The notes below the pieces were generated by a model that had not been told where the DNA came from, ran no database searches, and was given only the letters and a program-made list of their open reading frames with translations. 50,860 nt of DNA from Girardia tigrina (Eukaryota): NCBI GenBank assembly GCA_001938485.1, contig MQRK01225506.1, positions 90,835-141,694 of the forward strand. The letters run 5' to 3'. This document shows, one piece after another, positions 10,789-46,900 of the stretch. The position numbers were made by a program, and so were the translations under genes. How positions within the stretch are numbered: the first letter of the stretch is position 1; each line of letters opens with the position of its first letter.

Positions 10789-11080
10789 TGTTAGGAACGA
10801 CATTGGTCGCATAAATGTCTCCTGTTTCTTCCGACATTCAAATAACAAAAGAAATAAGCCTGGATCAAAATAATTTATTAATCGACAACTTTTAAATTTT
10901 CCACAAAATTTCTGTTTATTTAAACAACTGAATTTATTTGAGGATATTTTTAGTATTTCTATTTTTAACCGTTTCTTATAAATATGGATATGGATATAAA
11001 TATAGATATTTAATAACATTAATAATTATTTAAATGTTGAGAATTAAAATATATTATAAATTATACTTACAAATCTTACA
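10789..11080 (-). repeat. 3' LTR of element B
   Basis: Direct repeat of 15527-15818, adjacent to the PPT. Confidence 0.97.
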
Positions 11081-14000
11081 TCCCCCCTTTTTTTAAGATT
11101 TTTATTTTTCTCAACCTTACGGGTGACTACTTTGTTGTCGGAGTTACGACGTATGTAGCTCCTATCGTGGATTTTGTCTATAATTGTATATGGACCTTCG
11201 TACTTGTCTTGGTGCTTGTCTCGAATCTCTTTCTTTATCCAAACCACCTCCCCTATCTGAAAATGTCGTCGTGTTTTTTCGGTGTTCTCTATTTGTTTCT
11301 CTCTAATTTTTTAATAATATCTGCCGTGGGTATCTTGTTCATTGGTAACCAACCCTAACGGTTAATCTGCCTTCCAAATACTACCTCTGCTGGACTGAAA
11401 CCTGTCGTTTTCTGTACTATGGCGTTCAAACTAAATTCTATTTCAGGAAGTAATGTAGCCCAATCTGCTTTGTCTCTGTCTTTCAGCGAAGCATTTATAT
11501 ATTCCCGTATCGTTCTGAATTGCCTTTCTATGATTCCGTTAGTATTATGGTGGTATGGGCTGGAAAATATTAAGGTAGTGCCTACTTCTGCCGCTAGGTC
11601 TGCCATCTTCTTAGATATGGAGCTCTTTCCACAATCCACATGTATTTCTTTAGGTGAGCCAAATTTCATAATCCAATTCTTATTGATGATGTTTACCATT
11701 GTGTTTTCTTCTTGCGTTGCGCATGCTGTCAGAACTATGTATTTACTGAAGTGATCAATAATAGGGATAATATATTTTTCCTTTTTCAAAGTTTCTCTAA
11801 AAGGCCCGCAGATGTCAATGTATATTTTCTCGAATGGTTTATCTGACTGTATCTTTATTGTTTTTTCTTTCGTTTGTGTTGTCAGGGTTTTTATCTGTTG
11901 GCATGAAATACAGCCTTCAATTGTATATTTTACGGCTTTCCCCTTGCATTCATGTCGAAATTGTTCTTGATGTATTTGTCAGTTTTTTCCGCACCTGCAT
12001 GACATAATAATTTATGGATGTGTGTAATAAATTCTGTTTTCTTGTTATCTGGTATACATATCTTTCCGTCTTCCGTATATACTGTTCCATTCTTGACGAT
12101 AAACTGTCCCCCGTCTACTGACTCCTTAATCATCTCGATATCCTTGTCATTTTCCTACCAGTATGAGATCGTTTTTATTGGAGACATCGTTAATATTCGT
12201 GTTTTCATTTTGTGTTTCTTGACGTCTTCATGCTCCATCAAACATTGTGTACACATACCACAATCTTTTCTTGACAACATGTCCGCGTTTCCGTGTTGTG
12301 AACCTTTCCTGAATCGCATGTCAATGTCTAAACTGCTGAGGTAGTTGAGCCAAGTCTGAAACTGTGCCGTGATCGGTTTCTTTGTATTCATCATAGACGT
12401 TATAGCCTTGTGGTCCGTCCTAAGGACGAATCGTTTCCCGTACAGATAATGCTTGAAATGATCACAAAAATAGTATACAGCCAGAAGTTTTTTTCTGGTT
12501 ATGTAATATCCTTTCTCATGGCTATTCATCGCTTTCGACCCGTACGCGATCACGAATTCCCTTCCTCAAACATCCGTTTGAGATAGTACCGCCCCAATGG
12601 TATCGAAGCTGGCGCCAGTGTCTAATATGAATTCTTTCCTAAAATCTGGGAACGTCAGTATCGGGGCTTCCATTAAAGCTTTCTTCATTTCGTCAAAAGC
12701 TGTCTCACAGGTATCTGTCCAGACTAGTTTCGCCTGATTATTCCCACACATACTTTCCAGGGTTCTGGATTTTCTGGCATAGTTTTTAATGAATCTTCTG
12801 TAGTAGTTACAGATTCCAAGAAAACTTCGAACACTTTTGATGTATTTAGGTCTGGTGAACGTTCTGATGTCCCAGAAATTTGACTTCTTTTCTCAGGAAT
12901 TTGCACTTCTCGGGATTCAAACGGAGTCACCCGTCGCCAACTCTCTTGATAACTTCTTCTAGGACTGTATAGTGTTCGTCTAAAGTCTCGGTGGCCACTA
13001 AAATGTTATCTAAGCATACTGATGCCCCACTCTTTATAGTTGCGAGTATTTTCGTCATAACTTCTTGAAATGTACCGGGGGCCGCCGCTATTCCAAATGG
13101 CATTCTTGTGAAACAAAATTGGCCCGATTTTGTCGAAAAGGCTGTTTTTTCTTGTGACTCCGGGTCTAGTTCGATCTGATAAAATGTGTTAATCAAGTCT
13201 ATTGTACTGAAATACTTTGTCCCGTGTAAGGTATCCATCATTTCTTCCGCATTGGGCATGTGAAAGGCTTGTCTTTCAGTAATTTGATTTAACTGTCGGA
13301 AGTCTAAACATAATCTCACGTCTGCACTTTCTTTCTTCCACACGCATACTAATGGTGTATTCCAAGGGGAGTTACACTTCCGAATGATTCCATTGTCGAA
13401 CAGATTTTTGATTGTTTCTTCTATTTTACCTTCTAAATGCATCGGTTGTCTCCAAGGTTTCATATTTATGGGTCTACCATTGGTAACAATCTTATGAGTT
13501 ATTAGTTTTGTACATCCTATATCCCATTTATTCGCCATGAAAACACCCATGTCTCTGGAAATTATATCCATCAATCGAGGAGACTTCTCCAGGTCATAGA
13601 GACTTCTCCATAGTCATCCTTATTTTTTCCATTCTGTCCTCATTCGTTATTCTCTGTCCGAATTTAGCCTCAATGTTGCAAATAAATTCCTCTGGTTTGT
13701 CAAGTGTTATGTCAATCCATTGTAATTCGAGACCCAGTTGTCTCTGCATATCAATTCCAGCAATCACTGCTGGGCTAATATTCTTTACCACCACAAATAT
13801 AATTTTCGCTTCTCTTTTGCCAATCGACACTTCTAATTCCCCTTTCCCTAACACTTCTAATTTACTGTCATTCGCACATCTTAACTTGTCGGTTGACGGT
13901 TCTATCTTTGCACCTGGTATGCGGTTAGCTATATCCGCACCCATGACATTGACACTCGCACTCGTATCCAATAAACAATCCACATACATGCCGTGAATAT

Positions 14001-14220
14001 TCACATTTAAGCTCGGTTTCCCTTGCATTTTTTCGTACGATATAATCTCCGTGGTCCTAGTTCCCAGTGTTTTATCTGTTGTCCTGATTTCGCAGATTCC
14101 GTTTGTCTCTATTTTCTTAAAAAAATTAACAATTTTAATTTCTTCCTGACGTGTTTCTTTTTTCTGTAAATCATTATCATTGCGGTCTTTCATCGGTCCT
14201 ATATCGTTTTTCATATCCAC
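11044..14220 (-). pseudogene. pol: pol of element B (PR-RT-RNase H-IN), fragmented
   Basis: ORF pieces 13594-14220, 12927-13574, 12566-12751, 12155-12553, 11930-12133, 11355-11789 and 11044-11247 carry the canonical motifs in order. Confidence 0.95.
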
Positions 14221-14375
14221 ATTATGATTAACATTATTACGTAACTCTTTATAATCTTTATTAAAATTATTTACAAAATTACTTTTATTATACTTGCCAA
14301 TTGTACTATCAGCTACATGATTATTATAAATAGAAAATATACTACTATAACATGAACGGTTAGAAATAGAATTAC

Positions 14376-15575
14376 CTACTGCATGGCTCCGATTGACTCC
14401 TCTACAGTCGGGCCGTGACCGTTTGGGCTATCGGTGTCGCGATCGTCGTTTCGAGCTTCCTCCATCTCGATCAAGGCAATTTCTTTTCCTCTCCTGAATC
14501 CTCTCTCATAATCATTTTCCGGATATCGTCTTCCACTGTTATACATTTCCTCATTCTGTCTGTGACGATTCGGGCAATCTGTGAAATTCTTTCTTCGATC
14601 TCTGTTCGAATACATCGGCTGGTTGTTCAACTCTGACTCTCTGTACCATGGAGTTTCACGCCTTCTTGTTAGGTTTGGGTAGCAGTCATTCGTATTGTGG
14701 CCATTTGTTCCACACCTTGAGAATTTGATTAAACAATTCCGTCTGATATGACCGGTCCTTCCGCATCCGTAGTAAATTTGAGTCTTCCGTGTGGGGCAAT
14801 TTTTGCTCAGGTGGCTGGTTGAATTGCAAGTCCAGCATTTTCTTGTTTCTCTCGGACTTTGCCTCGTTAAATGACCGGCTTCGGATGGTTGCCTCTTATT
14901 CGGTGGGTGATTCTGAAGTACATTGCTGTATGACCGTCGGGCATATGGTCCGTATTCTTCCGTATATCTCATTTTCACCGCCTTATCTTCGCCCATCGCA
15001 TTGATTTTGTTGTATTTCTTTTGGATTATATCCATTTTTTTCATTGTTTCTTTGATATCTCCCATTTCTTTTTTATCGCTCATTTCAACTTCTTTTATAA
15101 TTTCTTTATCGTCCAGACAATGTTGCAGGATTTCTTTCTCCAGCTCTTCTTCATTCCATTTGTATGACGCCAATTTTGCTGCAAATATTTTGATATTTTT
15201 GAAATAATCTTCTAAATAATTTTAAAATAATTTAATCCCGTCGATAATCTAATATTTCCACCATATCTTTAAATCTAGAATTTTTTTTGTGAATGCTTTC
15301 CGCAATTTGTCATCGAAATTTTTTATATTTACGTCGACTTCTTCGTATATTTTAATTGATTCGTCATCCAATAGAGTCTTCACAAGGATAGCTTTCATGC
15401 TCTCTCTGGTGTTCGTCAGCTCGAAGAATCGCTTGCATTTGGTGATGAATAATTCCACATCTTCGCCTTTTGTGTACCACTCTGGAATTGCTCTGGCCAG
15501 GAGTATTTCCGAGGTCTTGGTCGCCATGTTAGGAACGACATTGGTCGCATAAATGTCTCCTGTTTCTTCCGACAT
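14376..15575 (-). pseudogene. gag: gag of element B (frameshifted)
   Basis: ORFs 15249-15575 and 14376-15173; knuckles CWTCNSTSHLSKNC, YGCGRTGHIRRNC and SRCGTNGHNTNDC. Confidence 0.9.
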
Positions 15576-15818
15576 TCAAATAACAAAAGAAATAAGCCTG
15601 GATCAAAATAATTTATTAATCGACAACTTTTAAATTTTCTACAAAATTTCTGTTTATTTAAACAACTGAATTTATTTGAGGATATTTTTAGTATTTCTAT
15701 TTTTAACCGTTTCTTATAAATATGGATATGGATATAAATATAGATATTTAATAACATTAATAATTATTTAAATGTTGAGAATTAAAATATCTTATAAAAT
15801 ATACTTACAAATCTTACA
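15527..15818 (-). repeat. 5' LTR of element B
   Basis: Direct repeat of 10789-11080, immediately followed on the minus strand by PBS TGGCGACC. Confidence 0.97.
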
Positions 15819-17243
15819 ACGCCTATTAAATAAAATTACTGTATCTAAATTATTTAGCTTGTAACTGGATGAATCGACAAATGTAGTAGGAAAAGCACAT
15901 TTACTTGTTTTTATTCGTTTCATTGAAGAAAATAAAATTGTGGAAGATTTGTTACGCTATAACCAATTTGGTAAAACTACTACAGGAAAAGATGTTTTTG
16001 ACATAATGGATACATATTTTAGATCTGTTGGATTATCAGGTATCTGATGGTGTACTGATGGTGTATCTTCCATGGTAGGTTACTTCAAAGGATTTATATC
16101 GTATGCTAAAAGACAAAATGAAAATATCATACTGACTCATTGTTTTACTCATCGCGAAGCTCTACTAGCAACAACAATGGGATCTGAACTCAAACAATTT
16201 TTGGATGAAGTGATTAAAGTGGTTACTTATATAAAAAGCAGGCCACTTAAATCGAGGATTTTTGAACATCTATGTGAAGAAATGGTAAATCAAAAGAGAC
16301 GCTTAATTTTTCATACGGAAATAAGATGGCTTTCTAAAAGTCGCGTTTTGAATCGCTTCTTCGAATTAAAGAAAGAAATTGAAGAATTTTTTCACCGAGA
16401 AGACAGAAAAGAGAAAATAAGAGAAAAAAATTAAGAAATACAAAAAAAAACAGAAAAAAAACAAATTATTAGAAAATCAATTATGGTGTTTAAAAGTTTC
16501 ACATTTGACAGACTTATTTGGTCATTTAAATGCACTTAATTTAAGCATGCAAGACAAACATAAAAATATTATGTCTTCTACAGATAAAATTAAAACCTTT
16601 CAAGCTCAAATAAGAGAAGACAACATAAGTATGTTCGTAAAAGTTGCGGAAAGTAAAACTGAAACATTGCATTTCCTGCTATGATTGGATACGTAATCCT
16701 TTTGTTGAATTTATTCATGATTTAAATCTTTCGTAAAAAGAGGAATTATTAAGTTTTCGTAATGATCGTTCACTGCGACTTAAACATTCTGAAATTTATA
16801 TTGATTCGTTTTGGGTAGATATTCGAAAAAAAATATGTAAATATAGGGGAAAGAGCTTGCAAAATTCTATTTTCTACTTCGTATTTATATGAAGCAGGAT
16901 TTTCTGCTCTCATAAACATAAAAACAAAAAAGTGCAAGACTCAATTCTGTTGAAAATGAATTGAGAATACGTCTCTCAAATATTAGACCTGACATTGACA
17001 CATTAGTTGCAAATCACCAAGGTCAAGTGTCTCATTAGTAATTGTGAAGAACCGAAAGTGTCTTCACTTTTTAAAATAAAAAAACCGAGAATAATATTTC
17101 CAAAATATATTTCCAACGTCTAACAATTTAACATTTTATTTCGTCAATTTGTTAATCGATTTAATTNNNNNNNNNNNNNNNNNNNNNNNNNNNNNNNNNN
17201 NNNNNNNNNNNNNNNNNNNNNNNNNNNNNNNNGTTACGTTGTT

Positions 17244-17589
17244 TCAAACAATTTGAAAATTATGTTCGAATCTTGATTTGATTTTGTTACGGAATTCGTT
17301 ATTTAAATGTGTGAAATCAATTTCCTCAAATGGTTTTTTTGCACAAAATCTGTTTCGTTTCTGATTTACAATTGTTTTGATGCCATTTATGATCAAAAGG
17401 AATGAATTTTTTTGATTTTTCACAATTTTGTATGGTCCGTCGAATCTGCCAGTTATGTTATCTCGGACTAAAGCTCTAAAGTCAGAGAAAGTATTTGTAA
17501 ATGTTTCATTGATTTCCTCAGTTAACAATTTGTTGATGTTCTTAATTTGACCTACGGAAGTGATGTTGTTAACGTGATTTTGTTTTTTT
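17244..17589 (-). pseudogene. Integrase C-terminal (GPY/F) remnant of the boule-carrying element
   Basis: ALVRDNITGRFDGPYKIVKNQKNSFLLIINGIKTIVN lies just upstream of the 3' LTR. Confidence 0.7.
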
Positions 17590-17807
17590 NNNNNNNNNNN
17601 NNNNNNNNNNNNNNNNNNNNNNNNNNNNNNNNNNNNNNNNNNNNNNNNNNNNNNNNNNNNNNNNNNNNNNNNNNNNNNNNNNNNNNNNNNNNNNNNNNNN
17701 NNNNNNNNNNNNNNNNNNNNNNNNNNNNNNNNNNNNNNNNNNNNNNNNNNNNNNNNNNNNNNNNNNNNNNNNNNNNNNNNNNNNNNNNNNNNNNNNNNNN
17801 NNNNNNN

Positions 17808-19000
17808 AAGTTTTAACGTCATTTTGAGAAATATGTAGAATTTCGTGTCTTGGAGTCATTGGACTCAACAAATGTGTTGTGGTAGGTGTTACATTAGGAG
17901 GAGAAAGATTCTGGGATTTTGTAGTAGACATCCCCTCTAATGTTTGAGCAGTCGTATTAGAACTATTATTACTAGAAGATTGCAAAGGAGATTGAGGAGC
18001 TGCTGTTAATCCAGCTAATGTAACACATGGTGTTGCAGTGGTCGAATCAGNNNNNNNNNNNNNNNNNNNNNNNNNNNNNNNNNNNNNNNNNNNNNNNNNN
18101 GTCTAGTTTGTAGAGATGCCACTTGTTGTGCATAATTAGGGTTAGGAATTACGGCAGCAGGAATTTGATGAACGTACTGAGGTTGCGGTAAATACATCGT
18201 TGTGGTCGATTGAGGTAACGTCATAGTTGCATATTGTGGAGACAACACTGTGAAATTGCACAGGAACCTGACATAAAAATGATCCATTTTGCAAAGCATA
18301 TGGAACTAGTCCATTATATGAAACTGTTCCAGAAATTTCTTGTCGAGGATATAAATGTTTCTTTCTTACAGCTTGTTTAATGTTTAATTTTCTCTCTTTA
18401 AAGATCAATGTTTCAGATTCATTCTTGGTGAGATTTTCAGCAATTTCTTCATTTTCAAAAGTCACAAATCCATAGCTTCTTTTCGATAATCCCGTACGAT
18501 CATTTATTATATTTGCGTATTTAATTGGACCATAATGTGAAAAGAAAATTTTCAAAAGTCACAAATCCATAGCTTCTTTTCTATAATCCCGTACGATCAT
18601 TTATTATATTTGCGTATTTAATTGGACCATAATTCGAAAAGAAAATTTTTAATTCGTCCTCAGTTGTATTTGATGTGAGTCCACCCACAAAAATTCTGTT
18701 TGGTATAAGTGTACCAATTTTCGGTATTGATACATGAGAAACAGAATTGAGCTGATTTATTTGATTGATCTTGTTATGCTTCACTTTCTTTATAGTTTTA
18801 GAAATTCCCAATGCCAATAAAGAGTATTCAATATTTTTTTGTACATCGAAAAGCAGTCTTTCCATAACGTTTAATAGAAAATTGTATTTTATGTTCAACT
18901 GCGATAAATTATCTTGTTGATCTTGATATATGGATAATACTTCCTGGATTAACTGATTGAAATTTTTTTTTGAAGAACTTTTCTTTTTTAATAGAGGCAT
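17808..19000 (-). pseudogene. boule: Intronless boule (DAZ-family RRM) copy fused behind an ~85-aa non-Boule N-terminus
   Basis: PKIGTLIPNRIFVGGLTSNTTEDELKIFFSNYGPIKYANIINDRTGLSKRSYGFVTFENEEIAENL...LIFKERKLNIKQAVRKK matches the Boule RRM signature (GTVIPNRIFVGG...DRAGVSKGYGFVTF...KKLNIGPAIRKQ), followed by P/Q/Y-rich and S/T/P-rich tails. Disrupted by a 97-bp tandem duplication, a TAG at 18581-18583 and a frameshift near 18260. Confidence 0.88.
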
Positions 19001-19020
19001 CTTCTTTTTTCTTTTTTTTT

Positions 19021-19032
19021 CTTCTGACACCA
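19021..19032 (-). promoter_or_regulatory. Primer-binding site complementary to the tRNA-Leu(CAA) 3' end
   Basis: TGGTGTCAGAAG lies 2 nt after the LTR-terminal CA and is complementary to ...CUUCUGACACCA. Confidence 0.85.
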
Positions 19033-19219
19033 ATTGTGAAGAACCGAAAGTGTCTTCACTTTTTAAAATAAAAAAACCGAGAATAATATTTCCAAAATAT
19101 ATTTCCAACGTCTAACAATTTAACATTTTATTTCGTCAATTTGTTAATCGATTTAATTATATTATAGGAATTAAATCCTATATAAATTAAATCACTACAG
19201 TAATTATTAATAATAATTT

Positions 19220-21813
19220 TGGTGGATACGTCTATCCAGAGTCCATCTTTAATTTTGCTTGTTTTTTGTGATGGTTGATGGTAGTTACTGATAGTTGGGT
19301 CAGGTTCTTGGTTCAGGATTAATTCTTTTTTAGGAGATATGAAAGAGGTCTTTTTAATCTTCTTCATATTGTCTAGATAAAAAATCAGCAACTATGTTTT
19401 CAGAACCGCTGGTATAATTGATATGAAAGTTGAACTGAGACAAGAATTGAATCCAACGCAATTGTCGATTTGATGGGTTTTTCATAGAATTTAGACAGAG
19501 TAATGGTTTGTGATCGGCTTTTACTTAGAACTTGGAGCTTCCGAGGTGGTATTTGAAGTGTTTCACTTCGATGACTATCGATAGCAGTTCCCGATCGACA
19601 TTGGAATATTTACTTTCTGTGGTCGAGAATGTCCTAGAGAAGAATTATGCTGGCTTCAGTTTGCCACTGGAGTCACTATGGTTAAGGCTACTACCTACTG
19701 CTGTGACTGAGGCATCTGTGCACAGAATGAAAGAGTCGTTGTTGTCCGGTGGGTATCTTGGCTTGATATTTCTAACTTAAGTTATGGCTTCTTCATGAGT
19801 GTTCTCCCAGACGAATTTTGTCCGATGATTCTTGACTGTCAGCTCGCATAAAGGAACCAGTGTTTCAGAAAGGTTTTGAATAAGCCTGTGGTAGAAAGTG
19901 ATAGCTCCGATAAATCGTAAGAGAATCTTCAAGTGGGAGGACTAGACCAAATATTAAACGTGTTTTGTTGTAAAGGTTCAATTCCAGCTGGTGTGATTTT
20001 GAAACATAAAAACTCAATTTCGCGGATTTTCCGGCATTATTTGCTTGAGTTGATTCTCAATTTGGTGACTTGTAAGCATTGCATAAATTCTTGAACGTGT
20101 TTTTGATGATCTTGTTCGTTTCGGGAGAAGATAAAGATGTTATCAATGTACACTAGAGCATATGATTAGCAAACACGTAACAATGTATCCATTAGCCGTT
20201 AAAAGCTTTAAGCGGCATTCCGCAAACCTAATGGCATGAAATTGTATTCGAACAGCCAAATGGTGTGATTACTGCGGTCTAGTGTTTATCCTTTTCTTCT
20301 AATGAAACTTGGTGATATGCTTTTTCGACATCAATACTGGAGAAAATCTGACAATTTGTGACTTAGTCCCGAATATCGGTTAAGCTCGGTAATGTTAATC
20401 GGCATGGTCTGCTTTTTCCGTTGAGTACTCTGTTGTCGCCACATGGGCGGAAAGAGCAGTCTCTCTTTTTGACTATGACTAATGCAAAAGACCAGTCACT
20501 TTTCCTTTCACGGATTATTCCTCTCTGGAGAAATTCAGTGAATTGTTTTCGGACGTTTTCTAGGATCATTTTTTCCATTCTTCGGGCTTTCTAATTAATT
20601 GGTTGACCTGTAGTAGCAATGTTCCGAACAGGTAATGTTGATATATGATTGATTTGGGCAGGGCTTTGGAGTAAAATATTGTGGCAAACGATGAGGAGCT
20701 CGTGGGCTGCCAGGAAATGAGAATCAAGTATAGATCGGCGGACGTCTGCAAACAGTAATACCGTCGAAGCATAGTTATACGAAATTTTTATAATTTTTCT
20801 CCGTATACCTTTATTGAGGTGTTATTGGTTGAGATTAGTTCTCTTCGAGTGATTTGTGAATCTTGTTGAAACATTTGGGCTGGTAGCACACTGATGTCTA
20901 CTCTTGAATCGATTAAAAAATTAAAAGATACTTTTCCGGATGTGGCATGTACTGATAATATGGCGTTGAAATTAGCTTATGGCGGTTTTACCTGTGAGAA
21001 ATCGTGTATCGGGGGTTGATAATTAAATTTTGGGACCTCTATATTCGACTTTACAGGGTCTCTTTTCCTTTTCCCAACGGTTTGGAATTTGGCCATGAGC
21101 ATGGTTTTAGTCATTTTTGCATTATGTCCAAATTTATGATGACAGCATCACACTGGTTGACTGTCTAACGGTGAATTACATATATATTTCTTGAGACAGT
21201 TCAATTCTTTCTTCATATCTTCAAGATCGCATGGAAGTGGTTGACTTAGCGGTTCGATCCCGTATAACTGATCCATTTCGATGGAGATATAAAGGTCTGC
21301 TTTGGAAGCCAAATCATCTAGTTGATATGGTTCATAGACAATTAGATGACATCTGATATGTGGGTAAAAAATCCAGAAATTGATGTCTAAGTAATTCGCA
21401 TGCATTCAAAGGAAGTTGTCGGTCTCAAGACTTTGGGGCACTGTTTCAGCTCTTCGAGTAATCAGGGAAGGTTTGATGTGTCGGTCCGTTTTGAGCTGGG
21501 TAATTTCCCGCAGAGCTTGTTGAAATTCTTGATGAATGCCATTTTGAGTTTGTTGGACGGTACTGAGTAAGTTTAGATCCATAGCCGAAGAAACAGAGTC
21601 CAATGTTTATGGCAGAAGATTTGTTAATAAGTGGAAAGGATTGGTCTTCTGATTTGTAATATTCGTCAATTTAAAGTCAGCTTCCACTTGAGAAATCCAT
21701 TTGGCTGGGTTTTTGAAGAAAGAAGGAATGTTAACCTGAATGTGGTTGTTCTCAGCTACGCTTCTGACACCATTGTGGAAGATTTTATCTTTATTTAAAC
21801 AATTTGAACTCAT
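19220..21813 (-). mobile_element. Decayed Ty3/Gypsy internal region (element C: gag-PR-RT-RNase H), no LTRs seen
   Basis: Gag IPSFFKNPAKWISQVEADFKLTNIT; knuckle CCHHKFGHNA; protease FLIDSRVDISVLP; RT WSFALVIVKKRDCSFRPCGDNRVLN, MPLGLRNA, YIDNI; RNase H DASVTAVG, DRELL, TDHKPL, NIVADFLSR. Truncated before the integrase core. Confidence 0.88.
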
Positions 21814-41259: not shown

Positions 41260-42118
41260 AATTTGTATAATGATAAATGAAACTAACGCAGCATTATTTT
41301 TTTCGACCGAAATGATTGAAACCTTGCATAACTTTGACACTATTTGTTATGATGGAACCTTTTTTATTGTGCCGAAAATTTTTGACACAGCTGTTCATCA
41401 TTTATGTACCTAGTGGGCCTCGAATGTTGCCAACATTTTTCGTTCTCATGAAGTCTCACCAATATCTCCATTACAAACTTTCCATGGCAAAAATAAAAGA
41501 GCTGGTTCCCCAATTCAATCCTATTATGGCTATTGGTGACTTTGAAAAAGCCCCAATTCGTGCACTTCGTGAAGAATTCAATGAAATAAATTGTCGAGGA
41601 TGCAATCTTCATTTCAAACAGGCAGTTGTGAAGAAGTCAGTGAACTTGGATTGAAAAACTTCTACACAAAAAATAACCAATTTAACAAGTTGATGAACTT
41701 GGTAATGGCACTCGGTTTCTTGCCCACTGATAAAATCATGATAGTCTTCAACGAATTAGAAGACTTCCTTATTGGATATTCTGACCAACAAAGCAAAATC
41801 GAAGTTTTTTTTCGATACTATCAATGTACATTGTTGACAGATTTATCAATAATCAATTGGTTTAATGCTGCTATCTTGACAAAAAAATTTTCCGAGACCT
41901 TTAATAGGAAGTTGAAATTGAAATTTCGAATACATCATTGTAATCCTTGGGTCTTCACCGAGAAATTGATAAATATTATCGATGACATGAAGTTAGAAAG
42001 CTTACGAATATGAAATAACATAATTCCAATGAGAAATTAATTCCAATGCGAAATTGATTCCAACGCGAAATTAATTCTGTGATAAATTAATTCTAACGCG
42101 TAATTAATTCCGCAACCC
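41260..42118 (+). mobile_element. MULE (Mutator-like) transposase fragment with 3' terminus
   Basis: DGTF, GDFEKA and GCNLHFKQAV motifs; ~17-bp tandem subterminal repeats taattccaatgcgaaat at 42021-42110, ending CCGCAACCC. Confidence 0.85.
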
Positions 42119-42288
42119 ATAAATTTAACAACCATTTTTGATTTATTTCGATGAAAGTATTTGTCGATGAAATTCGTTATAGTATATATTATATTATCGA
42201 TTAATGGTTTAATTTTAATGGTTATAAATTATTTTTTATGGATTTCAATTCGACGAAAGAATAAAAAAAAATTTCAGTGAAAGTTATA

Positions 42289-43147
42289 CAGTGCGGTTCA
42301 TAAGTAAGTTCGCACCCTAACAATTTCAATATTTCTCAATAAAACGATGAAAAAGTCTTTATTATTTTAATTGCATTGTTTAAAATGATTAAAATTGATC
42401 ATAATCTTGTATTTAATTTAAATATTTATAGATTAATTTCATATTTGATGTTNNNNNNNNNNNNNNNNNNNNNNNNNNNNNNNNNNNNNNNNNNNNNNNN
42501 NNNNNNNNNNNNNNNNNNNNNNNNNNNNNNNNNNNNNNNNNNNNNNNNNNNNNNNNNNNNNNNNNNNNNNNNNNNNNNNNNNNNNNNNNNNNNNNNNNNN
42601 NNNNNNNNNNNNNNNNNNNNNNNNNNNNNNNNNNNNNNNNNNNNNNNNNNNNNNNNNNNNNNNNNNNNNNNNNNNNNNNNNNNNNNNNNNNNNNNNNNNN
42701 NNNNNNNNNNNNNNNNNNNNNNNNNNNNNNNNNNNNNNNNNNNNNNNNNNNNNNNNNNNNNNNNNNNNNNNNNNNNNNNNNNNNNNNNNNNNNNNNNNNN
42801 NNNNNNNNNNNNNNNNNNNNNNNNNNNNNNNNNNNNNNNNNNNNNNNNNNNNNNNNNNNNNNNNNNNNNNNNNNNNNNNNNNNNNNNNNNNNNNNNNNNN
42901 NNNNNNNNNNNNNNNNNNNNNNNNNNNNNNNNNNNNNNNNNNNNNNNNNNNNNNNNNNNNNNNNNNNNNNNNNNNNNNNNNNNNNNNNNNNNNNNNNNNN
43001 NNNNNNNNNNNNNNNNNNNNNNNNNNNNNNNNNNNGATCAATTTTAATCATTTTAAACAATGCAATTAAAATAATAAAGACTTTTTCATCGTTTTATTGA
43101 GATATATTGAAATTGTTAGGGTGCGAACTTACTTATGAACCGCACTG
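42289..43147. mobile_element. Tc1/mariner-type element with long TIRs (interior in gap)
   Basis: TA|CAGTGCGGTTC; inverted repeat of at least 112 bp (42289-42400 vs 43036-43147) with one mismatch; TA duplication. Confidence 0.9.
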
Positions 43148-43229
43148 TATATACCTTACTCCTTTATGATTTTAACTATATATTACTTAATAATGAACTT
43201 TATGTAATTATTATTGAACTTTATTACAA

Positions 43230-43970: not shown

Positions 43971-46900
43971 ACAGGACTTGTTTAAATGTTCTTAATAAAA
44001 AAATCATTTGATAAGTTCATATTTTTAATTTCACCAATATAATTTGTTAATGTGGATAAACAAATCCATCCCAAAAGTGCAAAAAAGACTGAATAGAAAT
44101 ATTAAAAATAGTAAAATTAAAACAAATAAAAGTCATGTTACGCTTAATTAGCCTTCCAAAAATTTTCTGAAAATTCTATTTTTGGAAAGTCCAAAAATGG
44201 CACTGACGTGTTCCAATAAAAGTTGATCGTACAATTCCAAAACGTACTTGGACCAATTAAGAACGGATACGCGAAAATTCTAAAACAGAATCCCAGTATA
44301 AATACTGAGGATTTTGCAGAAAATCAGAACAAACAAAAAAGAAGAAGCAAAAAATTGAAAAACTAATTCGAGAATTAATTGAGAATCAATTTCGTTGACC
44401 GAACCGTAAAAAAAAGAAACAAAATTCGTGATTCAAAAACAACTTTTTGTTACAACGAAGAAGACAACATGAAGTTGGTATCGTTATTTTTCACAGAGGG
44501 ATCAAGTAATGCGTTACTCTCTCTCTCGGTCCCCGTAATTAAAAATTATGTAATGGGCGGATTGATGGTTTCTTTTTGGTTAAATTAATTTTCACTGGAT
44601 CGATTTATTTAAATTTTTTGTAAATTTGGATCGACATTTGACGATTTCACAAAACGGCCCTCTTTAGGGCCAAAAATGGTGATTGGACAGTAAATTTTGA
44701 TAAAAAGAAATCGAAAACAAGACACGACTTGAAGAACTCTGGGCGTGGCTGCCGCGCTCAACCTGCCGCTCTGCGATCACGCTTTTAATTTTTAATTAAA
44801 ACTAAGGTGGAGAAACTCAGTTCACATAAATATGTGGTGTAAAATGGCAGTAAAATTCAATAGTATTAGTCTGGGTTGATTGCATGAAAGTAGTACTCAA
44901 ATTTTTGTTGCAGCAATGTTAAATGTTGTTGAGCCAAATCCAAAATTATTTGTGTGTTTTCAATCCTGATGTGGTTGTTCCTTTGAAACATTTATAGTGA
45001 TCCTTGTTTTAACAATGTCTGCCAAAGTTCCAGTTTCGATTTGAATCCGTTTAATTTGTCAGAGCAATAAATTTTTATTCGGACACTGCATTTTTTGATT
45101 AAGTTTATTCATGTGTTCTAATATATCAGCCATGTATGCTATTTTGACAATCCAATGATTATTTTCGCAGAGCTGATGTAGTTCTGACATATTTTGATTA
45201 AGTAGAAACTGACTATCCTGGTGACGAAGATCAAGTAATCTGACCAAAACTTTACCTCGGGATAGCCAGCATACTTCAGTGTAATACAACAAGGATGTAT
45301 ATTCTGATCACATTTCTATGCATAATGCTTCGAAAATTCGCGAATTTAGGGTTCTTGATCTAACGATTTTTATGATTTTCACGCTTTAGCTCATTGTTTG
45401 TAATAATTCTTCATTAAAGTTCCTAGCCATCAATGCTTCGCGATGTATGCAGCAGTGTGTAAATTTTAATATCGGATTTTGTCGTTTTATACATGAGACA
45501 AACCCCTTTTTATTGCCCATCAGTGCAAACGCTTATGCAATTGCTCCATTGAATTTCATAAATTTCGAAGAAATCATTTGTTAAACGGAAAATTTACTCT
45601 CCAATTCTTGAGATTGGAAGCTCTTTGCAAAATAAATAATGTTCTTTTATTGAATACTCGTCAACAAAACATACAATACTAATCAGTTGTGCTGGGTTTT
45701 CAATGTCTTTTGATCGTCGATCTAAAGGGGAATTTTTTTGGCCGTTTTTAGTTTTTTAATCAGTGTTTCAACAACATCGCTCGACATATCACCAATACGT
45801 CTTTTAATAGTATCAGCTGACAAATAAATTTTACTAATTTCTTTAACTTCATTAGACCAAAACAATATTCGAACTATTTCCATGCACGCTAGTTTGATAA
45901 GCTTCTCACAAATTGTATGAAGTTTTTTCTGACGCGCAATTAGTTTTACAACATGAAAACTAGCTTCCAACGCTTTTTCAGAAACTGTGAAAGACGTAGT
46001 CATAATTTGCGTCTGTTTAAGATTTTGATTTAAACACCGCTTAAAATTAGTTATCTTTCTTGGCGTAAGTGGGATGTTTTGAATTTACATGGCGAATCAG
46101 TTTACTTTGTACCATGGCCTCATTAGAAAGCTGTTCTCTGCATATGACACATTCTGGTTTCGGAGAAGTTTCTTCACCACACCATGAAAATCCATATGCA
46201 ATGTACTCATCATTGTAGAGCCTTATTGAAATCTTCGGTATTTTGCGAACACAGCACGTACTGGGTTCATCATCATTTGGTGATGATGCAACATTTTCTT
46301 TCCGCAAAAACTTGTCCATATTAAAATAAAATTTCCAATTGATGTAATCTTTACTGTATTGCCCACAATTTGTAAAATTTAATTTAAATTTTGAATTATT
46401 TTTTTTTAAATGTTTGCAGAATTTGACATTTGATATTCACATGTTCTAATCCAATTTAACTTTATCATTTTTACGATCCATAATTTTGTTGTTTCCTAGC
46501 AACTTGTGATCGAAATAATTGGACAAACATTATTACAAATAATTAAAATAAAAACAATTGGAAATAAAACTTCAATTGAATTTTGTTTCAATAATATATT
46601 TTTTGATTGTTTTTTAATTGTTATGCGATCCGAGATTTGCCAAAGTAACATGAGCAATTATCGCAAAACACAAAAAAACTAAGAAATACTTACTTTATTT
46701 TAGTTACAACAGCAATTATTATTTTGTTAAATAATATCGATTTTTTTAATTTAAACAAATACTTTTAAGATTTAACAATTTAGAAAATTAAAACTTTAAA
46801 TTTACAGACTTTTTTCTTATTTAAATAAAAATAACATTATCTATTATTCAAAAACACAAGAAAAAATTAAAAATACTTACTTTATTTTAGTTTCAAAATA

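Follow-up and report, generated by a model that had tools for sequence, protein, structure and literature searches.

A 2.1-kb non-autonomous Ty3/gypsy LTR element occupies the minus strand from 19199 to 17043 of the 50,860-nt stretch of Girardia tigrina DNA analysed here (the window), and its interior carries, in one reading frame, a segment similar to the N-terminal region of a Cut/CUX homeobox protein followed by the first part of a boule-type RRM. The preferred reading, held at a probability of roughly 0.6, is that pieces of host cux and boule were captured by template switching in this element and have been copied with the aid of a helper as passive cargo.

Structure of the element

All features of the element named below are read on the minus strand, except for the sequence gaps. 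The unit is flanked by a 5' TSD at 19200–19204 (ATTAC) that is identical to the 3' TSD at 17038–17042; the duplication measures 5 bp, or 4 bp (TTAC) if the LTR end is shifted one base further. The visible part of the 3' LTR (17043–17166) agrees at 124 of 124 positions with the 165-bp 5' LTR (19035–19199, TGTAG...TCACA). The start of the 3' LTR and the polypurine tract of the window copy fall within an N gap at 17167–17232, while in another copy, seen in the loose ends of public contigs, a G-rich polypurine tract abuts the LTR start (19199). These contigs come from four of the 24 listed public runs (X1–X4, X4 being RNA by guess), and loose ends occur at 17233 in three of the four runs compared.

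The primer-binding site (PBS) TGGTGTCAGAAG at 19032–19021, presumably of the tRNA-Leu type, is a 12-mer that occurs only twice within the window, here and after the LTR end of a neighbouring gypsy at 21772. It is followed by an A-rich leader of 20 nt and by the ATG at 19000, which the first-pass annotation had singled out as the start of a frame running from just past the PBS into an RRM. That frame is indeed open through 90 codons into SIPKIGTLIPNRIFVGG, and it comprises 139 codons in total. The ATG and about eight basic codons at its start (18977–19000) have no cux match, the cux similarity beginning at about residue 9. At most these first eight or so codons may be element-born, possibly a residual gag start, their position being what points to gag.

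At the opposite end, an integrase C-terminal remnant with a GPY motif (about 17438–17430 by motif scan) and a stop occupies 17244–17589. It is 43% identical over 49 aa (E 2e-11) to the tail of P0004, one of the related proteins described below. The switch from cargo back to element is held by an unsequenced gap at 17590–17807. Contig 10 of run X2, which spans 17233–18480, bridges this gap with 217 letters and keeps the phase; its codon starts share a single phase from the RRM to the integrase tail, and the letters visible at the two edges of the gap (27 and 14) are open in that phase when read by hand. The earlier suggestion that the boule tail may run into the integrase tail across the gap therefore holds as far as phase is concerned, but most of the letters are unseen and a stop among them is possible. 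No knuckle, RT or integrase core was found within the element by motif scan or by Pfam on the ORFs between the LTRs, the latter giving RRM matches only. The LTR pair, PBS, polypurine tract and TSD, together with the occurrence of more than one copy, are those of a non-autonomous LTR retrotransposon.

Two of the DNA runs gave 1432 and 1053 contig records on a 3.3-kb stretch that includes the flanks, over a wide range of identity. The LTRs of the window copy are identical over the 124 letters, yet its interior differs from the public runs at many near-fixed sites; a diverged lineage may have inserted here recently, or the assembler may have collapsed the two LTRs. A loose end at 19022 in run X4 carries a related LTR end whose PBS differs slightly, a hint of a further family with the same leader, and the same run has no cover over most of the element flanks. 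In X1 and X3 the head has a greater summed contig depth than the tail, depth being no measure of copy number or expression.

The element landed in or beside the pol of an older, decayed gypsy (19205–21772, minus strand), at its RNase H end. This neighbour has the same PBS, a DUF7041-like gag (E 0.001, below the curated cut-off), RT, and RNase H whose motifs were read in translation. Another gypsy at 10789–15823 has 297-bp LTRs that are 98% identical, a CCHC-type gag and a decayed pol. Decayed pieces of hAT-type transposase are presumably present at 15865–16684 and 45725–46436, as judged from translation; 15865–16684 gave no Pfam match. The stretch 41316–43151 includes a MULE transposase fragment (Pfam E 6e-5) and, at 42285–43151, a 116-bp inverted repeat pair that surrounds an N gap.

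The cux-matching head

The segment at 18736–18976 is similar to the N-terminal region of a Cut/CUX homeobox protein. The 90-aa head is 74% identical (E 2e-39) to residues 100–186 of P0005, a 1353-aa Cut/CUX protein with three CUT domains and a homeodomain. Searching 1.84 billion representatives with the head gave three matches (P0001–P0003), and further searches added P0004 and P0005; in protein searches the head was found only in these five. At the DNA level, contig 29 of run X4 aligns with 18886–18736 at 14 differences in 151 nt (about 91% identity) and then diverges, and hand translation of its 30 loose letters past 18736 yields the 10 residues that come next in P0005. Thus, a cux sequence exists that has the head and continues as cux. 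The N content of the head is 0.14 and that of the cux sequence preceding it 0.13; the respective values for Q are 0.14 and 0.12. Capture would have gone from cux to the element. The source of P0005 is a 4.4-kb Logan contig, and the N-terminal 400 residues of the protein are unmatched in the other Cut proteins compared.

The first-pass annotation had presumed the head to be a Gag N-terminus. Its position agrees with that view, the ATG lying where gag would start, but its identity does not, and the assignment was rejected on the Cut/CUX match together with sequence and fold evidence. Neither a Pfam gag nor a DUF7041 match to the head was obtained, and tblastn of the head against the neighbouring gag with the same PBS gave no match. 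The best ESM Atlas scores were 0.80 for the head and 0.79 for the knuckle region of P0004, both at chance level. An AlphaFold model from 15 sequences (mean pLDDT 68) predicts one 59-residue helix, a disordered linker and the RRM. The helix covers residues 14–72 of the head at a pLDDT of about 53–79, from a shallow alignment, and no capsid-like multi-helix fold is predicted. No gag was among the top fold matches listed from PDB and BFVD, in which RRMs dominate, and a heptad scan found moderate periodicity only (at best 9 of 14 a/d positions hydrophobic). A weak Vip3A_N match on P0001 (E 0.011, below the cut-off) was dismissed as helix noise. Nor is the head a part of boule: it is absent from all 13 aligned boule proteins, a set from which P0015 was left out and which does not include the host's own boule, and to that extent the earlier view of the head as foreign to boule is borne out.

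The opposite direction of transfer, in which an element-born head (a much-changed gag remnant) entered the cux of this lineage, or in which P0005 is a mis-joined contig, is considered distinctly unlikely. In its favour, and against transfer from cux to the element, the head is known from a single CUX protein record and a single contig, and it occupies the gag-body position in P0003 and P0004. On the same side is the result that a profile of the head had no match in the N-termini of 111 other, non-flatworm Cut proteins (best E 0.62; reversed control 3.1) and that the head had none in 119 whole Cut proteins. The blank in the 111 N-termini is weak, however, because P0005 was the sole flatworm CUX in the compared set; no other was named among the 120 listed of 263 Cut matches. 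PMC4815179 holds nothing on cux. Against the reversed direction, the frame of P0005 is open throughout, extends 99 residues ahead of the matched segment and about 1170 beyond it, and includes no other element-like domain, and the X4 contig continues in the same way as P0005, although it may share its source. In addition, gags of the CsRn1 type are conserved over their length, according to the accessible text of PMC2582038, yet the head has no match above chance to the neighbouring gag, in Pfam or in the Atlas. Capture out of cux is therefore preferred here.

The boule-type RRM and its junction with cux

The RRM of the cargo, with its PKxGTLIPNRIFVGG sequence, is closest to boule, boule-like sequence continues beyond it, and DAZL is among the top PDB sequence matches. 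Over their overlap the RRM cores of P0001 and the window copy are identical at 49 of 50 positions. The P0001 core is 65–72% identical to 11 flatworm boule proteins and 55–60% to two others, and 12 of the 14 RRM proteins among the 17 search matches are from parasitic flatworms, which points to a probable flatworm host, presumably a free-living one. DAZL recognises GUU RNA (accessible text of PMC9638919); in the cargo RRM conserved positions are altered. RNP2 is preserved in it, as is the aromatic core of RNP1.

The junction of cux with boule was placed at 18727–18736 by hand comparison of the window with the X4 loose end. Similarity to cux stops at 18736; after three mismatches there is a 6-nt in-register match to the cux continuation (18732–18727, by hand), which would represent either residual homology or microsimilarity. 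The aligned flatworm boule proteins mostly have S or T and then I or L directly before PK. A short stretch at the junction could thus be common to both parents, as the template-switch model described in the accessible text of PMC5131818 expects. The cargo is collinear with the boule proteins.

In the window copy the first part of the RRM, with RNP2, lies at 18548–18733 (Pfam RRM_1 E 3.5e-10; tblastn with flatworm boule). A premature stop at 18583–18581 inside it, missing from the first-pass annotation, ends the ORF at 139 aa. This stop is held by a 97-nt tandem duplication within the RRM (18451–18644, units 97% identical), which breaks the frame. The duplication is absent from P0001, and 18547/18548 is bridged by none among the 32 public-contig pieces listed, with 2575 more beyond these; it is either private to the window copy or an assembly artefact. 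The rest of the RRM, with RNP1 and the start of the tail, follows in the next frame at 18255–18547 (Pfam RRM_1 E 1.1e-9), its translation being 51% identical over 107 aa to the Schistosoma boule protein P0014. A second frame shift lies near 18255, where contig 10 of X2 has 11 extra letters. Beyond it, 17808–18254 holds the boule tail in a shifted frame, with a YATM.LPQ box as in P0014 and then an S/T/P-rich part that, by its composition only, would also be assigned to boule. The N gap at 18051–18100 within this tail corresponds to 9 letters in three of the four runs compared, contig 10 of X2 included, and to a related 9-letter joint in the fourth. With a stop inside the RRM and a frame shift, the window copy cannot make a whole RRM.

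Run X2 has two contigs of similar depth over 18548–18739, with 2 and 28 differences respectively, and the same head contig joins both. At 18319 there is a loose end that is about 75% alike, and in X1 a variant letter at 18577 accounts for 47% of the depth. This second boule version (18578–18709 and near 18319) could represent another subfamily, or sequence captured anew from a paralogue of boule. In run X4 the summed depth reaches about 390 over 18609–18719, compared with 5–80 elsewhere in the element, and there is a loose end at 18602; the peak is possibly due to another RRM-bearing transcript or to a host boule transcript.

Other copies and sister elements

P0001, which begins with an LTR end and PBS, has its head in frame with a complete RRM and is 91% identical to the window copy over 139 aa. 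The two share the same cux–boule junction, in accordance with the earlier proposal that the frame was kept at capture, and since P0001 is an independent copy the fusion is not due to chance. The search for intact copies that the first-pass annotation had proposed is answered by P0001 in part: its RRM is whole and in frame with the head, but the frame shifts beyond the RRM. P0002 has a frame shift after residue 55. Thus, the window copy, P0001 and P0002, which either carry boule or are truncated, are all three broken, each with lesions of its own.

P0003 and P0004, which are 89% identical to each other, follow the head as far as SFSH and then enter a CX2HX9CX3C (CHCC) knuckle instead of an RRM. 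P0004 is an unbroken ORF of 444 aa ending in a GPY tail; its head is identical to that of the window copy at 71 of 81 positions, while the tails share only the 43% given above. The head therefore occurs on two distinct bodies and has recombined at least once more, as seen at the protein level. The earlier idea of an RRM standing in for a zinc knuckle is correct as to place, because P0003 and P0004 go into the CHCC motif at that point, but the role in binding or packaging RNA that went with it is unsupported. Scans for the DNA of the JGI copies yielded 393 pattern matches with none confirmed and 0 matches in metagenomes, and 22 matches with none confirmed in the viral set.

Selection on the cargo

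Of 40 differences listed between the window copy and the public contigs (263 more exist), 30 are coding. Synonymous changes account for 3 of the 18 near-fixed and 4 of the 12 variable differences among them, where a fraction of 0.25 is expected without selection. The X4 cux contig covers 50 codons; 10 of their residues are different in P0005, for 14 nt differences from the contig, a ratio such as neutral change would give if the contig and P0005 represent the same gene. The RRM of P0001 departs from flatworm boule at 11 of 63 conserved positions, whereas 11 hosts depart at 0–4 each. Its changes include K151N and G162R (P0001 numbering), at sites invariant in all 13 aligned hosts, and some of them may be changes of the host lineage. 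These tests are small and weighted towards the window's own copy. From the sequence comparisons, the classed differences are probably near-neutral and the protein not selected residue by residue.

These data bear on the possibility that a working fusion protein is made, in which the cux helix oligomerises or docks on helper particles and the boule RRM binds element RNA in place of the knuckle. The junction falls where P0003 and P0004 enter their CHCC knuckle, contig 10 of X2 keeps a single phase from RRM to integrase tail, and in P0001 a single frame runs from the head through the complete RRM, with a model that keeps the RRM fold beside the 59-residue helix. Also on this side are the intact RNP2 and RNP1 aromatic core, and planarian Burro elements bear host-like domains in their ORF (accessible text of PMC6431247). 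However, no excess of synonymous change is seen, 11 of the 63 conserved boule positions are altered, K151N and G162R among them, the window copy, P0001 and P0002 are all broken, and the protein has no capsid-like part. A working protein is thus judged unlikely. The RNA-packaging role put forward in the first-pass annotation fares no better, as the window copy lacks a whole RRM and the classed differences look neutral.

Proposed origin of the cargo

In the preferred reading, passive cargo captured from two host genes, a gypsy RT copying element RNA would have jumped, close behind the PBS and start codon, to a cux mRNA packaged alongside it. A second switch near 18730 would then have led onto boule mRNA, and a later one back to an element's integrase tail; the junctions themselves are observed. 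Because both LTRs, the PBS and the polypurine tract were kept, the product could be copied again; these cis parts are observed, as are several copies. The unit of PBS, ATG and cux head also stands on the second body, whose knuckle is CHCC and whose integrase tail is another, so that the head recombined at least once more, whether earlier or later. Escape from nonsense-mediated decay, by which element RNAs with early stops would be degraded, may be the sole reason why the long frame has stayed open.

Two observations count against passive cargo, namely that three junctions are in phase and that P0004 is unbroken over 444 aa, which is more than such cargo needs. Protein searches, on the other hand, favour open frames, and the in-phase ORFs should be read with that in mind.

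A further alternative is an effect at the RNA level, in which copies of the element feed small RNAs that silence host boule and cux, and an influence on the germline, rather than a protein, is the reason why the family persists or is tolerated. The cux part is still about 91% identical in DNA to the cux contig (the 14 differences in 151 nt), even in the diverged window copy. Silencing of a parent gene by its LTR-borne retrocopies has been described for Pxyfem (accessible text of bioRxiv 10.1101/2022.04.04.486979), and loss of boule in planarians removes male germline stem cells (accessible text of PMC4858218). The cargo is sense-oriented, however, and the in-phase junctions are left unexplained by silencing, which makes this the most improbable of the alternatives.

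Comparison with known systems

Capture of two genes and re-amplification by LTR elements has precedent (Tan et al., 2016; PMC5131818, main text). The chimeric animal LTR retrocopies CG4799_CG11924_r and CG17604_r reported there resemble the present case in that partial host genes replace the interior of the element, two parents are joined, and the product is copied further as a non-autonomous element; the short similarity at their joint may have a parallel in the 6-nt match at 18732–18727. Likewise, cux-like and boule sequences replace the interior between the PBS and the integrase tail in the window element. The retrocopies of Tan et al. are described in that text as young, polymorphic and few. 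Unlike them, the two-gene cargo described here is coding, in frame with the element start and apparently with the integrase tail, has been seen in runs of two organism labels, and shares its head with a second element body. Maize Bs1, as described in the main text of PMC5131818, is similarly an LTR element with a hybrid ORF derived from several host genes. In contrast to Bs1, a plant element for which a functional hybrid protein is reported, the present one combines a transcription-factor fragment with a germline RNA-binding domain.

Among the gypsy clades, CsRn1 (accessible texts of PMC2582038 and PMC3630058; the clade name was taken as a lead from that of PMC6238403) shares the CX2HX9CX3C knuckle with the sister proteins P0003 and P0004, and has the GPY motif in the integrase tail and short LTRs. 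The window element differs in that knuckle, RT and integrase core are all missing, and possibly also in its TSD, which would measure 5 bp against 4 in the clade. The PBS of the clade is of the tRNA-Trp type (TGGTGAG/CCCCGT; accessible text of PMC2582038), unlike TGGTGTCAGAAG. By these sequence features membership of CsRn1 is not established, since the sister knuckles fit and the PBS does not. Burro, the giant gypsy of planarians, is also a flatworm gypsy with host-like domains inside its ORF, but in the accessible text of PMC6431247 it is autonomous, exceeds 30 kb and has a typical gag, whereas the window element is non-autonomous and measures 2.1 kb. The Masculinizer retrocopies of Plutella that make up Pxyfem are, again in the accessible preprint text, multi-copy partial cDNAs of a reproductive regulator attributed to LTR elements. 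For Pxyfem, silencing RNAs and W-linked tandem arrays have been demonstrated, while the window element is known from sequence alone.

In the literature covered, which lies outside most subscription journals and Repbase, no publication on this element or on a cux–boule capture was found. Judged by the main texts, the process is the known one of multi-gene capture by LTR elements, of the type of Bs1 and Tan et al. (2016), and the cargo is unusual; the supplements of Tan et al. may hold closer cases.

Significance

The element is an animal counterpart of maize Bs1, in which parts of two developmental regulators have been placed in one frame inside an LTR element and multiplied, with the head on two bodies. 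It offers a direct test case for whether it is the protein, RNA stability or chance that keeps such frames open. In planarians the germline depends on boule (accessible texts of PMC4858218 and PMC6225667), and since the cargo is boule, a testable route is provided by which a transposon could influence fertility. In practical terms, anyone who uses probes or RNAi fragments for boule or cux, or maps reads to these genes, in this flatworm lineage can hit copies of the element.

If the cargo is passive, as is judged likeliest, the element is a clear example of a known process but nothing out of the ordinary. A bolder proposal, regarded as doubtful, is that of a flatworm LTR family in which the cux helix is a reusable head replacing gag and the zinc knuckle has been swapped for the Boule RRM, the family being kept because the hybrid protein or small RNAs act on germ cells or on element RNA. 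Were a family with cux head and Boule RRM to act on germ cells in this way, a transposon would be interfering with a master gene of fertility in animals able to alternate between sexual reproduction and fission.
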